Source of the DNA: Verrucomicrobiia bacterium | GTDB taxonomy: Bacteria; Verrucomicrobiota; Verrucomicrobiia; Palsa-1439 | Length of the DNA: 63,502 nt | NCBI GenBank assembly: GCA_050013395.1 | Contig: JBEKFI010000010.1 | Span: 1-63,502, forward strand | Direction: 5' to 3' | Part shown: positions 50,137-63,502 of the stretch, one piece after another | Position numbering within the stretch: position 1 is the first letter of the stretch | How the letters are laid out: every line of letters starts with the position of its first letter | The notes under the pieces: model-generated | What the model was told of the DNA's origin: nothing | Databases searched by the model: none | The model's input: the letters and a program-made list of their open reading frames with translations, nothing else | Made by a program: the position numbers and the translations under genes

Positions 50137-50272
50137 CCTCTTATCAAGAGCGGTCGAGGGACTGGCCCTGTGAAGCCGCGGCAACCGTCCCCCGAAGGAA
50201 TTCGGGGGAGACAAGGTGCCAATTCCAACTCCGAATCCCGATGAACTGTCGGGTAGCGGGGGAAGATGAGGG
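50137..50272 (+). promoter_or_regulatory. SAM-I (S-box) riboswitch
   Basis: CCTCTTATCAAGAGCGGTCGAGGGACTGGCCCTGTGAAGCCGCGGCAACC...GGTGCCAATTCC...AGATGAGGG matches the S-box core (CUUAUCAAGAG.GG.GGAGGGACUGGCCC.AUGAA.CC.GCAACC ... GGUGC.AAUUCC ... AGAUGAG). Confidence 0.85.
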
Positions 50273-50292
50273 AGAGACAAGTGTCATTTGGT

Positions 50293-50347
50293 TGCCTCTT
50301 CACTGCTTGCCCCGTCAAATCGGGGAGGCTGACGAGGCAGTTTTTTT
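50293..50347 (+). terminator. Riboswitch expression-platform terminator
   Basis: TGCCTC..CCCCGtcaaatCGGGG..GAGGCA followed by TTTTTTT (50341-50347). It lies 42 nt before the ThrC-like ATG. Confidence 0.65.
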
Positions 50348-50388
50348 GCCCTTCAGCGGACGAGTCTTTGTGGAGAAGAAAGGTGTGC

Positions 50389-51303
50389 ATGAAAGCGAAA
50401 CACGGTTTCTTCACTAGTCTGAAATGCCGCGAATGCGGGCGCCGCTACCGGAAGGAAGCGCTCCACGTCTGCGAATTCTGCTTCGGTCCGCTCGAGGTTG
50501 ATTACGACTACGACGCGATCAGGTCGGTACTGACGCGCGATCGCATCCTATCCCGTTCTCAAACGATGTGGCGTTACCGCGAGTTGTTGCCGATCGATGG
50601 CGAGGCAACGGTAGGGTTTCAGGTCGGATTTACCCCTCTCGTCAAAGCGGACTGCTTGGCCAAACGATTTGGGCTGCGCGAGGTGTGGGTGAAAAACGAC
50701 ACCGTCAATTACCCCACCTTGTCGTTCAAGGATCGCGTGGTCAGCGTGGGGTTGTCGCGGGCGCGGGAGATGGGATTCGAGATCGTCGCCTGCGCTTCGA
50801 CGGGCAACTTGGCCAACTCTGTTGCGGCGAACGCGGCCAGCGTTGGGCTGAAGAACCATGTGTTCTTCCCTGCCGACCTAGAGACGGGTAAAGTGGTCGG
50901 CTCGCTGGTGTGTGGCTCGAACGTCATTGGGATTCACGGCATGTATGACGAGGTCAACCGCCTTTGCAGCGAAATCGCAGGCAAGTACGGTTGGGCGTTC
51001 GTGAACGTGAATATCCGGCCTTACTATGCGGAAGGCTCAAAGGCGATGGGGTTTGAGATCGCTGAGCAACTCGGGTGGACGTTGCCCGATCACGTCGCCG
51101 TGCCGATGGCTGGCGGCTCGCTGATTACCAAGATTCACAAGTCGTTCAAAGAGTTCGTCAAGCTCGGGTTGGTGGACAAACACGACGTGCACATTCACGG
51201 CGCACAAGCAGAAGGCTGTGCTCCCATCGTCAACGCCATGAAGGACGGGCGACGAAATCTCGATTATCCCCGCCATCGCGGGCGGGTGTCGTTAACCTTT
51301 TGA
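50389..51303 (+). CDS. Threonine-synthase-like PLP enzyme with an N-terminal zinc ribbon (MetM-like candidate), apparently C-terminally truncated
   Basis: CRECG..CEFCFGPLEVDYDY zinc ribbon, PLP-lysine motif YPTLSFKDR, and ASTGNLANS. Collinear with archaeal-type ThrC only up to GAQAEGCAPIVNAMKDG, then a divergent 18-aa tail and a stop. About 130 aa of the expected C-terminal domain are absent. Confidence 0.7.
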   Translation: MKAKHGFFTSLKCRECGRRYRKEALHVCEFCFGPLEVDYDYDAIRSVLTRDRILSRSQTMWRYRELLPIDGEATVGFQVGFTPLVKADCLAKRFGLREVWVKNDTVNYPTLSFKDRVVSVGLSRAREMGFEIVACASTGNLANSVAANAASVGLKNHVFFPADLETGKVVGSLVCGSNVIGIHGMYDEVNRLCSEIAGKYGWAFVNVNIRPYYAEGSKAMGFEIAEQLGWTLPDHVAVPMAGGSLITKIHKSFKEFVKLGLVDKHDVHIHGAQAEGCAPIVNAMKDGRRNLDYPRHRGRVSLTF

Positions 51304-51682: not shown

Positions 51683-52483
51683 ATGGATCACCTGGACAAA
51701 CTGGAGAACCAAAGCATCTTCATCATCCGCGAGGCGTTCAATAAGATCGAGCGGCTGGCGATGCTCTGGAGCGTCGGCAAAGACTCAATGACGCTGGTGT
51801 GGCTGGCGCGCAAGGCGTTCTTTGGCCGCGTGCCAATCCCTTGTGTCTTCATGGAGACGAGTTTCGACATGCCCGAACTGATCGAACTCCGCGGCCGCCT
51901 CACCCGCGAGTGGAATCTCAATCTCGTCATCGCCCGCAACGACGAAGCACTCGCCCAAGGCATGAACCACACCCGCGGCCGCGTCGTCTGCTGCTCGGCG
52001 CTGTTGAAGGAGAACCTTAAGAAGATCGTCGAGCGCGAAAAATATGGCGGCCTCATCGTCGGCGTTCGCCGCGACGAAGATCCGACGCGCGCGAAAGAGC
52101 GTTACTTCTCGCCGCGCGACAAGCACATGGAATGGAACGTCGAAGACCAGCCGCCCGAGTTGTGGGATCAATTCAACACCGACCTCGCCGTCGGCACGCA
52201 TCTGCGCGTCCATCCGCTCTTGCACTGGACCGAGATGAACGTCTGGGAATACGCCGAGCGCGAGAAGATCCCGATGGTGCATCTGTATTTCGCCAAGAAC
52301 GGCAAACGCTGCCGCAGTCTTGGTTGCACGCCGTGCACCTTTGCCATCGACTCAAACGCCGACACGTTTGAAAAAGTCAGAGAGGAACTGCGCACCACCA
52401 AGAAAAGCGAGCGCAGCGTCCGCGCCCAGGACCAAGAGAGCGAAGACGCGTTCGAGAAGTTGAGGCGCGATGGATACATGTGA
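51683..52483 (+). CDS. cysD: Sulfate adenylyltransferase subunit 2
   Basis: MDHLDKLENQSIFIIREA, WSVGKDS (PP-loop), RRDEDPTRAKERYFSPRD and a C-terminal KLRRDGYM. Confidence 0.92.
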   Translation: MDHLDKLENQSIFIIREAFNKIERLAMLWSVGKDSMTLVWLARKAFFGRVPIPCVFMETSFDMPELIELRGRLTREWNLNLVIARNDEALAQGMNHTRGRVVCCSALLKENLKKIVEREKYGGLIVGVRRDEDPTRAKERYFSPRDKHMEWNVEDQPPELWDQFNTDLAVGTHLRVHPLLHWTEMNVWEYAEREKIPMVHLYFAKNGKRCRSLGCTPCTFAIDSNADTFEKVREELRTTKKSERSVRAQDQESEDAFEKLRRDGYM

Positions 52484-60098: not shown

Positions 60099-60174
60099 GG
60101 GGCCGTAGCTCAGTTGGGAGAGCGCCTGGTTTGCAACCAGGAGGTCACGAGTTCAAACCTCGTCGGCTCCACCA
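60099..60174 (+). tRNA. tRNA-Ala (anticodon UGC)
   Basis: Acceptor stem GGGGCCG/CGGCTCC with G3:U70, anticodon loop TTTGCAA, and an encoded CCA. Confidence 0.97.
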
Positions 60175-60194
60175 ACCGGCCACGCACTCCGCTG

Positions 60195-60271
60195 GGGCGC
60201 GTAGCTCAGTTGGTTAGAGCATGCGCTTGATAAGCGCAGGGTCATAGGTTCGAATCCTATCGCGCCCACCA
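60195..60271 (+). tRNA. tRNA-Ile (anticodon GAU)
   Basis: Acceptor stem GGGCGCG/CGCGCCC, anticodon loop TTGATAA, and an encoded CCA. Confidence 0.97.
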
Positions 60272-60381: not shown

Positions 60382-60988
60382 ATTTCCTCGACGCTTTGCG
60401 TCGCGGATGTTCTTTGACAATTGCATACAGTGTAGTGGGTAAAACTACAACAATGCTGAGAATATTCGGTCTGGAACTCCGAAAGGAGAACCGGACGGAT
60501 AGTTTGTGATCAAGCTACTAAGAGCGCAGGGCGGATGCCTTGGCGACAAGAGGCGAAGAAGGACGTAGTAAGTTGCGAAAAGCCACGGGGAGCGGCAAAC
60601 ACGCTTTGATCCGTGGATGTCCGAATGGGGGAACCCATCCATAGTAATATCTGGATACAGTGGTCTGAATTCAATAGGACCATATGAGCCATACCCGGTG
60701 AAGTGAAACATCTCAGTAACCGGAGGAATAGAAAGAGCACATCGATTCCCTGAGTAGTGGCGAGCGAAACGGGAACAGCCTAAACCTCGACACTTGTGTC
60801 GGGGGGTTGCGGGACCGCGGTGTGGTACGCAGAGAGTTAGCAGAAGGCTTTGGAAACAGCCCCCAAAGAGTGTGAGAGGCACGTAAGCAAAAACTCAAAG
60901 CGGCCTAGCGGTATCCCAAGTAAGACGGCACACGTGAAACGTTGTCTGAATCCGCGCCGACCACGGCGTAAGGCTAAATACTCCTTGT

Positions 60989-61047
<59 letters not shown>

Positions 61048-61086
61048 CAAAAGAACCTGAAACCCTGTGCTTACAATGTGTCATAG

Positions 61087-61378
61087 CCCAGCCCTTTCTG
61101 GGGCTACAAACGAAAACTATGCATTAGGTGTATGTGCTGAAGAAGCCAAAGAGCGACGCTCTCTATTACGGGTATACGTCGGATCTCCGACGCCGACTGC
61201 GAGAGCACCAAGCATCCGAGCATCGGGGATGGGACTTGGTGTACTACGAAGCCTACCGTGATGAGTGTGACGCTCGCGGGCGTGAACAGATGCAGAAGCA
61301 TTATGGTTCAGCGCGTGGAAAGCTCAAAGCGCGTCTCAGAAGCATAGTTTGAAGGTTGAAGACTTAGAAAGGGCTGGG
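61087..61378 (+). other. Intervening sequence (IVS) replacing the helix-25 tip of 23S rRNA
   Basis: Flanked by CTGAAACCCTGTGCTTACAATGTGTCATAG and TGATGGCCTGCCTTTTGCATAATGAG, which align to E. coli positions around 510-580. Closed by the perfect inverted repeat CCCAGCCCTTT / AAAGGGCTGGG plus an extended inner stem. Confidence 0.8.
61128..61352 (+). CDS. Small GIY-YIG nuclease-family protein encoded inside the 23S IVS
   Basis: The 74-aa protein is MYVLKKPKSDALYYGYTSDLRRRLREHQASEHRGWDLVYYEAYRDECDARGREQMQKHYGSARGKLKARL. This follows the Y-x-L / Y-x-G-x-T / R-R-x-x-E-H / V-Y-x-E / RE-x-x-x-K order of COG2827-type GIY-YIG proteins. GTG start. Confidence 0.65.
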   Translation: MYVLKKPKSDALYYGYTSDLRRRLREHQASEHRGWDLVYYEAYRDECDARGREQMQKHYGSARGKLKARLRSIV

Positions 61379-62310
61379 TGATGGCCTGCCTTTTGCATAA
61401 TGAGTCTGCGAGTTATTGTCAGTGGCAAGGCTAATCCCGCTAGGAGCGGGAGGAGCCGCAGCGAAAGCGAGTCTGAATAGGGCGACCAGTCGCTGGCAAT
61501 AGACCCGAAGCGGAGGCGATCTACGCTTGGCCAGGGTGAAGGCTGGGTAACACCAGCTGGAGGCCCGAACGGGTGAATGTTGAAAAATTCTCCGATGAGT
61601 TGAGCGTAGGAGCGAAAGACTAAACAAGCCCCGTCATAGCTGGTTCTCCCCGAAATATATTGAGGTATAGCGTCCGGCCACTAGCGCGCGGAGGTAGAGC
61701 ACTGGATGGGATAGGAGCCTTACCGGGCTACCGAATCCAACCAAACTCCGAATGCCGCGTTGCACTACCCGGGCAGTCAGACGGTGGGGGATAAGCTTCA
61801 TCGTCGAGAGTGAAACATAAACAGACTATCAGCTAAGGTGCCTAAATGACGTTTAGTGGAAAGGATGTGAGGTTGCTAAGACAGTGAGGATGTTGGCTTA
61901 GAGGCAGCCATCATTTAAACAGTGCGTAACAGCTGACTCATCGAGCGATCTCGCGCCGAAAATGATTGGCGATCAAACGTCATACCGAAGCTATGGATTC
62001 ATTCCCGCCTCGGCGGGAGTGAGTGGTAGGGGAGCGTTCCAAGTACATTGAAGGTGGAAGGTGACTGAAACTGGAGTGCTTGGAAGTGAGAATGCAGACA
62101 CGAGTAGCGATAAAGTCGGTTAAATTCCGACTCGCCGTAAACCCAAGGTTTCCTGGGGAAGGTTCGTCCGCCCAGGGTTAGTCGGGACCTAAGTCGAGGC
62201 CGTAAGGCGTAGATGATGGACGGTTGGTTAATATTCCAACACCACCTTGGTTTAAGCTGTAAGGAACCCAGAAGGGAAAGCGGGCCACCGATTGAAAGTG
62301 GTGGTCGTTG

Positions 62311-62409
62311 CCCAGCCCTTTTAGCTGCTTTCAAGGTTCGTGAGCTAGTCGAAGCACTTGATCGTGCGCAATCTAGCGAGCGACTTGCAAGGCGGTTAAA
62401 AGGGCTGGG
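62311..62409 (+). other. Second 23S insertion with the same terminal inverted repeat as the helix-25 IVS
   Basis: CCCAGCCCTTTT ... AAAAGGGCTGGG encloses 75 nt of imperfect hairpin. It lies in the domain III variable hairpin region between GGTTAATATTCC and AAACCGACACAGGTGG. No ORF. Confidence 0.7.
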
Positions 62410-62788
62410 TGAAGGACGTGGCGACTACGGTCAAAGCGGATCCGCCGCACTCACGCTGGCGAGAAAAGCCTTGCAGTGTTCACCAGGGTGCCCGTACCGG
62501 AAACCGACACAGGTGGGTGAGATGAGTATTCTCAGGCGCGCGAGTGAAATCTCTCTAAGGAACTCGGCACATTAGCCCCGTAACTTCGGAAGAAGGGGCG
62601 CCCCGGAGGGTCAGATTATATCAAAGCCCATTGGGGCCGCAGTGAAAGGCGCTCTACGACTGTTTAACAAAAACACAGCTCTGTGCGAACTCGCAAGAGA
62701 CGGTATACAGAGTGACAAGTGACCAATGCGGAAAGATTAAGGCAAGGGGTCAGTCCCGCGCAAGCGGGGCGAAGCTCTGAACTTAAGT

Positions 62789-62868
<80 letters not shown>

Positions 62869-63384
62869 TTGTAACGAGAGAGCGACTGTCTCGGAGAGAG
62901 GCTCGGCGAAACTGTAGTGGCGGTGAAGATGCCGCCTACCCGCAGTAGGACGGAAAGACCCCGTGCACCTTTACTGTAAGCTGATATTGGACTTTGGTGT
63001 GTGATGCGTAGCGTAGGTGGGACCCTTTGAAACCGAGCTCTCGGGTTCGGCGGAGGGGACAATGAAACACCACTCTTCGCTCATTAAGGTTCTAACCTCG
63101 CGCCGTAATCCGGCCGAGGGACCGTGTCAGCGGGTCAGTTTGACTGGGGCGGTTTCCTCCCAAAGAGTAACGGAGGAGCGCGAAGCTTGGCTCAGCTTGG
63201 TTGGCAATCAAGCGTTGAGGGTATGCCTACAAGCCAGGCTCACTGTGAGACCTACAAGTCGAGCAGACACGAAAGTGGGCGCAAGTGATCCGGCGGTAGA
63301 ATGTGGAATTGCCGTCGCTCATCGGACAAAAGGTACGCCGGGGATAACAGGCTTATCGGGCCCAAGAGTTCACATCGACGGCCC

Positions 63385-63425
<41 letters not shown>

Positions 63426-63457
63426 GAGAAGGTCCCAAGGGTCCGGCTGTTCGCCGG

Positions 63458-63502
<45 letters not shown>

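Follow-up and report, generated by a model that had tools for sequence, protein, structure and literature searches.

A 99-nt insertion in 23S rRNA helix 58 shares its terminal inverted repeat with a GIY-YIG-encoding helix-25 insertion and with a widespread family of palindromic elements

The 23S rRNA gene of a Verrucomicrobiia MAG carries two insertions closed by the same 11-nt inverted repeat: an ORF-less block in helix 58 (block 2) and an ORF-bearing block in helix 25 (IVS1). We read them as the short and the long form of one widespread family of palindromic insertions, whose spread would be driven by the encoded GIY-YIG nuclease and whose copies in rRNA would be excised by RNase III, and we give this reading as a whole a probability of roughly 0.62. 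The evidence presented below supports the family itself, in which long and short elements have the same ends; the mobility mechanism, the role of the nuclease and the excision from RNA are proposed on that basis.

The host 23S rRNA gene occupies positions 60508..63502 on the + strand of the window, i.e., the whole 63.5-kb stretch of DNA that was analysed, and is cut by the window end (Rfam RF02541, 2334 bits, model positions 1-2632). IVS1 (61087..61378, + strand, 292 nt, E. coli junction 539/554) replaces the tip of helix 25 and is closed by 11-mers at 61087-61097 and 61368-61378. The same pair closes block 2 (62311..62409, + strand, 99 nt), the termini of which, CCCAGCCCTTTT...AAAAGGGCTGGG, form an exact terminal inverted repeat. 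An earlier note on this DNA had described a 99-nt block in domain III bounded by the 11-nt termini of the helix-25 insertion, and the exact positions bear this out. The Rfam LSU alignment places block 2 in the long middle hairpin of three (model positions ~1514-1566), which we take, from the E. coli secondary structure, to be helix 58; the tip of this helix measures 63 nt in the window versus 10 nt in the Rfam LSU model. The sequence CCCAGCCCTTT or its complement occurs at exactly four places in the 63.5 kb, even with up to one mismatch allowed, confirming that the 11-mer is absent elsewhere in the window. These four copies are the closing pairs of the 292-nt helix-25 insert and the 99-nt block 2, and the paired pattern never arose in shuffled sequence. 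A search for further family-like hairpins in the 63.5-kb window found none, leaving only these two copies on the contig. The 23S portion in the window is 2995 nt long, 363 nt more than the Rfam consensus has for the same stretch (model positions 1-2632). The earlier note had put the excess over E. coli at about 390 nt, most of it in the two blocks; against the Rfam consensus, these supply 355 of the 363 nt. Both blocks are present with identical sequence in an independent metagenome assembly (L116, Ga0187886_1018683), and therefore they are not an assembly artefact.

Species-representative genomes were scanned with an internal 23S 33-mer, which yielded ten Verrucomicrobiae rRNA loci. The closest relative found (L007) differs from the window by 35 mismatches over 2,721 aligned 23S bases (~98.7% identity). 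Its helix 25 reads GTCATAG-CCTGGAA-GCAA-TTCCGGG-TGATGG, where the window has 287 nt in place of 13, and its helix 58 reads GTCGTTG-CCCCGAC-GCAA-GTCGGGG-TGAAGG, where the window has 93 nt in place of 12; both are plain 7-bp hairpins with a GCAA cap. The native helix-58 base is identical in L007 and the window on both the 5′ side (GTCGTTG, 62304..62310, + strand) and the 3′ side (TGAAGGAC, 62410..62417, + strand). At either site, element and native stem have nothing in common but the outer CC(C)/GG(G), and the likeness of the flanks of the two sites (GTCnTnG / TGAnGG) belongs to the native sequence outside the element. Helix 58 is a short tetraloop hairpin in all nine relatives whose sequence reaches it (L007 and eight others). 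The helix-25 insert has a patchy distribution: L001, L002, and L009 carry it, whereas L004-L008 and L010-L013 lack it; L009 combines a filled helix 25 with an empty helix 58. Because the two sites in L007 are plain hairpins, the shared ends are not native to the helices, and the comparison with these relatives establishes that both blocks are insertions that replaced the tetraloop tips of rRNA helices.

Metagenomes were then searched with the pattern CCCAGCCCTTT-N(40-100)-AAAGGGCTGGG, which allows total lengths of 62-122 nt. At least 120 loci, in rRNA genes and elsewhere, carry the exact 22 terminal bases, versus ~2 loci expected by chance for 22 fixed bases, a rough estimate that assumes ~5e11 bases scanned. 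The earlier note had proposed such a search for paired ends, and for empty sites, in the genome and its relatives. The result upholds its suggestion of a repeat family at rRNA hairpin tips insofar as there is a family with the same ends, but members also occur outside rRNA. The two outcomes that the earlier note had named as refuting its reading are both contradicted: the termini are native to neither helix, and the boundaries recur well beyond this genome. Among the matches listed, lengths show a sharp peak at 92-102 nt, and interiors are mutually unrelated, save for orthologous copies, and follow the G+C of the host. Neighbouring copies in the same loci, ~95-105 nt long, have self-complementary variant ends, commonly CCCCGCCCTTT, and also CCCCGCTCTTT, CCCAGCCCTTC, and CCGAGCACTTT. 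In extended form, the arm consensus is CCCAGCCCTTT-C-T-R, usually with A...T flanks, and the terminal stem of the family can be written (A)CCC[A/C]GC[C/T]CTTT-C-T-R plus its complement. Viral contigs are nearly free of these ends (0, 1, and 0 matches for three end patterns), and the element itself matches no known RNA family, in the window or in 20 loci. One locus (L065, 2706-2795) contains two tandem 35-nt mini-hairpins with family ends, an 8-nt loop and a 20-nt spacer.

The element catalogue is bimodal, with size classes of 90-110 nt and 240-320 nt. Members of the long class (243-316 nt) have the same or near-identical ends, and a homologous GIY-YIG ORF is always present between them. In IVS1 this is a stand-alone GIY-YIG nuclease ORF of 74 amino acids (61128..61352, + strand, GTG start; Pfam PF01541, E = 7.7e-8) in the rRNA sense orientation. 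Five more long elements (L024, L073, L127, L130, and L133) encode ORFs of 75-95 amino acids, all above the PF01541 cut-off, and in rRNA hosts the long-element ORFs are always in the sense orientation of the host RNA. An 18-bp stem, CCCGCACACTTATTTTGC, which begins CCCGC and contains one G.U, closes a GIY-YIG element outside rRNA (L003, 213-520) that is flanked on both sides by TTAT. The earlier note had viewed the two window blocks as an autonomous and a MITE-like member of one element family. The sharing of ends between GIY-YIG-encoding and short classes agrees with that view; the short element is not a deletion derivative of the long one, however, and neither window site has a target-site duplication. 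A comparison of block 2 with the IVS1 interior scored 15 on either strand versus a null of 16 ± 2, with the same outcome in six other loci. The idea that short interiors are decayed tRNAs, which arose from the 75-nt interior and from two tRNA-bracketing copies, was rejected: ARAGORN found tRNAs in 2 of 122 elements, excluding one catalogue false positive, and relaxed thresholds performed no better than shuffles.

Comparison of the window ORF with those of L001 and L002 gives pN of 0.22-0.26 and pS of 0.67-0.78, and the L001-L002 ORF pair has a dN/dS of 0.19, values that demonstrate constraint at the protein level by purifying selection, as judged from the aligned sequences. The ends show constraint as well: the IVS1 interior is 70% identical between the window and L001, and all 22 terminal bases are identical. 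The ends of L002 and L009, CCCCGCTCATT/AATGAGCGGGG, amount to three compensatory changes in the stem. In two helix-25 elements the ORF is frameshifted (L009, 5646-5928) or apparently degenerate (L056, 735-1023), and in both the terminal stem is intact. Together these comparisons establish that the family ends are under selection. The ORF start of L001, ATG TAT TAC GTG..., reads ATG CAT TAG in the window (61117-61130), so the window ORF must start with the GTG at 61128; this may represent early decay or simply GTG usage. The nearest solved structure to the ORF is the UPF0213 protein 1zg2 (107 amino acids), followed by the structure-specific nuclease SLX1 and the I-TevI catalytic domain. The family ORFs, at 74-95 amino acids, represent the GIY-YIG catalytic domain alone, with no separate DNA-binding domain. 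The GIY-YIG subfamily is large, 8,409 clusters reaching E ≤ 1e-3 and 781 reaching E ≤ 1e-10, and neither NCBIfam nor PHROGs provides a specific name for the ORF. An initial protein search recovered only three relatives, as an ORF located within an rRNA gene is seldom called.

To describe where the copies sit, we use the matches listed, and all site counts and statements of exclusivity refer to these. Sites in 23S rRNA (E. coli numbering) are ~272, 539/554 (helix 25), 609/619, 1163/1186 (helix 45), 1706/1751, 1866/1875, ~2200, and near the 3′ end; those in 16S rRNA are 183/208, 453/479, 1130/1144, 1146/1176 (ten loci), and 1435/1466. The helix-58 copy is found only in the window organism (the block is also in L116). 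Helix 25, helix 68 (1866/1875), and 16S helix 44 (1435/1466) are each used in different hosts by long members and by ~97-nt ORF-less members. A single 5.8-kb rRNA locus (L130, 1-5826) has at least seven family members, six short and one GIY-YIG-encoding, at different 16S and 23S helix tips. RNase P RNA genes are hosts in six loci (L014, L026, L058, L082, L106, and L131), often with two copies per gene; L014 and L106 have a common site with different interiors. In two loci the ends bracket a whole tRNA gene, Val-GAC in L110 (3991-4096) and Thr-CGU in L120 (2978-3082), each complete, of normal score and spaced 4-8 nt from the ends. Most of the remaining copies lie between ORFs. The proposition that copies always sit at hairpin tips holds for those in RNA genes but not for the intergenic ones, and the complementarity of flanks is slightly above the null (5.4 versus 4.9 of 12). 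In two intergenic interiors (L016, 2946-3041; L020, 9853-9947) a T run follows a G+C-rich hairpin, resembling an intrinsic terminator, and two identical inverted copies in L100 (46-146 and 6811-6911), flanks included, bound ~6.7 kb. Judged by neighbouring proteins, the hosts are Patescibacteria, Paceibacterota, Parcubacteria, Saccharimonadales, and Planctomycetota, with many loci from the CPR; the window organism is a Verrucomicrobiia MAG.

Some copies lie in frame within protein genes, i.e., an iPGM-like gene (L027/L091/L117) and a gene in L044. The elements at L027 5197-5291 and L044 1102-1196 have interiors that are 90% identical, with unrelated flanks in unrelated genes, which establishes from the alignment that the same element occurs at unrelated sites. 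Both are 99-nt net inserts encoding the same 33-amino acid peptide, TQPFPxNDTxSK...SATSIRNEAERAGL. The L027 host gene encodes an iPGM-like phosphoglycerate mutase of a Planctomycetota MAG, and no empty allele of the interrupted gene was found in its 90% cluster. At the junctions, a TCAA direct repeat is seen in L044, and TTCA and CTCA in L027. Across 136 elements, a 4-bp direct repeat occurs at the junctions of five, versus 0.9 expected, a weak signal that does not amount to a consistent target-site duplication; neither window site has one, the hairpin tip being replaced there.

The terminal stem pairs without a gap over a median of 22 bp. In block 2 it is formed by a 5′ arm at 62311..62335 (+ strand), whose first 11-12 nt make up the conserved end of the family, and a 3′ arm at 62384..62409 (+ strand), as delimited by fold prediction and stem walk; it includes a 21-bp ungapped stem with three G.U, all on the rRNA sense strand (fold, and stem walk on L116). 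Block 2 is predicted to fold into a self-contained extended stem-loop (MFE -74 kcal/mol, z = -8), and IVS1 likewise into a long self-contained hairpin (z = -6.8). Each element thus forms a long hairpin of its own, by which the host helix is merely made longer. Non-Watson-Crick positions in the stem are strand-asymmetric (p = 0.0025): among copies in rRNA or RNase P RNA that have three or more of them, 50 G.U are on the host sense strand versus nine on the other strand. This asymmetry in the sequences establishes an RNA-level constraint on the stem.

The same asymmetry is the starting point for a different explanation, that the conserved stem is chiefly an RNA module, a sequence-specific processing or excision signal for a host or element RNase, and that the elements are cassettes rather than DNA parasites. 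The strong enrichment in stable RNA genes, the conservation of the ends across phyla, and the position of the ends around whole tRNA genes in L110 and L120, where they resemble processing stems, would also fit. Nevertheless, we consider it unlikely as the main explanation. The two in-frame copies in protein genes encode the same peptide, and therefore they are read through and not removed from mRNA. The nearest structures to the encoded protein are UPF0213, SLX1, and I-TevI, and GIY-YIG enzymes are known as DNA nucleases. An RNA module would also leave the spread to many sites unexplained, so it complements DNA mobility and does not replace it. A much less probable origin for block 2 is ectopic gene conversion or template switching within this gene, between the similar hairpin bases GTCrTwGCC...GGTGAwGG, by which helix 58 would have received a copy of the IVS1 stem. 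The similar native flanks and the joint occurrence of both blocks in this lineage and in L116 are what such copying would produce, but the interiors of block 2 and IVS1 have nothing in common, the flank homology of the two sites is only 4-6 bp, and more than 100 short elements have the same ends in loci that contain no such neighbour; given these family data, the copying is unnecessary. Least credible of all is that both blocks are ordinary lineage-specific expansions with stems that match by chance or by convergence as RNase III substrates, for although helix 25, like helix 58, is a variable surface helix and an RNase III substrate is expected to have a long stem, the 11-mer pairing never appears in shuffles, the sites are empty in a near-identical relative, and the same 22 bases bound at least 120 unrelated loci beyond this genome with a fixed length mode, which agrees with the earlier judgment that expansion-segment drift could hardly produce identical termini.

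In the reading that we favour, the hairpin fold may be the reason why the ribosome tolerates the element. By analogy with classical 23S intervening sequences, the ~21-25-bp stem would probably be cut out by RNase III, leaving a fragmented 23S rRNA and freeing the mRNA for the GIY-YIG protein from the precursor. DNA-level spread would most likely be driven in trans by the minimal GIY-YIG nuclease encoded by the element, of the UPF0213/SLX1-like branch, with the conserved ends or extruded hairpin DNA as its target and with repair copying the element into the break. Such spread in trans would explain how short elements keep the ends of long elements and share nothing inside, and structure-specific action on hairpin DNA would fit the bias to helix tips. 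From the occurrence of a 90%-identical interior at unrelated flanks (L027 and L044) and the patchy presence in close relatives, we infer that the elements are mobile. The in-frame inserts in protein genes argue against general RNA splicing and would be compatible with RNase III removal from rRNA.

Several observations count against parts of this reading. The short interiors are unrelated to the long ones, which differs from typical transposon/MITE pairs, and the tRNA-bracketing ends in two loci are not predicted by a simple selfish-insertion model. The ORF has no DNA-binding domain, target-site duplications are absent from both window sites and give a weak signal elsewhere, the sharp length mode at ~97 nt is not accounted for, and the contig itself holds no more than two copies. 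A broader formulation, that of a cross-phylum palindromic superfamily spread by a minimal structure-specific GIY-YIG nuclease with a preference for hairpins extruded from structured-RNA genes, is put forward tentatively, as one that may well prove too wide.

Classical 23S intervening sequences occur in helix 25/45 of Salmonella, Yersinia, Campylobacter, Leptospira, and Coxiella, and are removed by RNase III without re-ligation. The elements described here resemble them in replacing helix tips with an extended stem-loop, in their sporadic distribution, in the presence of a small ORF in some, and in the use of helix 25/45. They differ in that helix 58 is not a classical site and that the ORF encodes a GIY-YIG protein rather than the 23S_rRNA_IVP four-helix-bundle protein. 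At the RNA level the element seems to behave like an intervening sequence, with excision proposed by analogy. To our knowledge, there is no report of one end sequence common to different sites, host RNAs and phyla. Excerpts of Tsurumaki et al. 2024 (PMC11270868) describe short non-intron insertions at classical intervening-sequence sites in CPR rRNA genes, and report CPR GIY-YIG ORFs only in non-intron insertions, scattered over several sites; the same excerpts do not mention a shared terminal stem, a pairing of long and short elements, or copies outside rRNA or outside the CPR.

The closest parallel in architecture is with REPIN/RAYT, which also consist of ~100-nt hairpins, often in tandem, with two conserved inverted ends, a variable middle and one small enzyme gene found between the same ends. 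The enzyme in that system is an HUH/Y1 tyrosine transposase, whereas the gene flanked here encodes a GIY-YIG protein and not a RAYT, which excludes the elements from that class; the present copies also occur in rRNA, RNase P RNA and ORFs, with ends common to several phyla. Rickettsia palindromic elements are likewise palindromic (~100-150 nt) and are found in frame in protein genes and also in RNA genes, but they are restricted to Rickettsia and have no known enzyme; the likeness lies in the in-frame insertion into proteins. Pairs of MITEs and autonomous transposons similarly have terminal inverted repeats common to ORF-bearing and ORF-less classes. Assignment to the MITE class was rejected: the short interior does not derive from the long one, and the protein is not a known transposase; the signal for a target-site duplication is weak and not consistent. 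[quoted passage not shown] So was a canonical GIY-YIG homing endonuclease, as the catalytic domain is present and an I-TevI-type DNA-binding domain is absent.

Literature searches with the exact end strings returned primer matches only; those combining GIY-YIG with MITEs, palindromic elements or CPR/Patescibacteria returned no description of shared ends, and none tied helix 58 to intervening sequences. The family is probably undescribed, although not certainly so because the literature searched was incomplete. How non-intron insertions originate and spread in the rRNA of bacteria has hitherto lacked an explanation, both for classical intervening sequences and for the many insertions of the CPR, and one end sequence with a nuclease gene always between the same ends offers a concrete, testable candidate mechanism. 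If correct, the superfamily would parallel REPIN/RAYT with a different enzyme, and would explain helix-tip insertions in rRNA and RNase P RNA, many CPR non-intron insertions, and some intervening sequences of the classical type. The end motif provides a simple search key for masking insertions in rRNA phylogeny, for primer design, and for MAG quality checks.

The window has further features outside the 23S rRNA gene. In the 16S-23S spacer (60099-60271), tRNA-Ala(UGC) precedes tRNA-Ile(GAU), the reverse of the E. coli rrnH order (Ile before Ala), which is found in L134. Elsewhere, a SAM riboswitch (50138-50272, 82 bits) reaches into the beginning of an ORF (50266-51303), which is followed by the gene for sulfate adenylyltransferase subunit CysD at 51683-52483.
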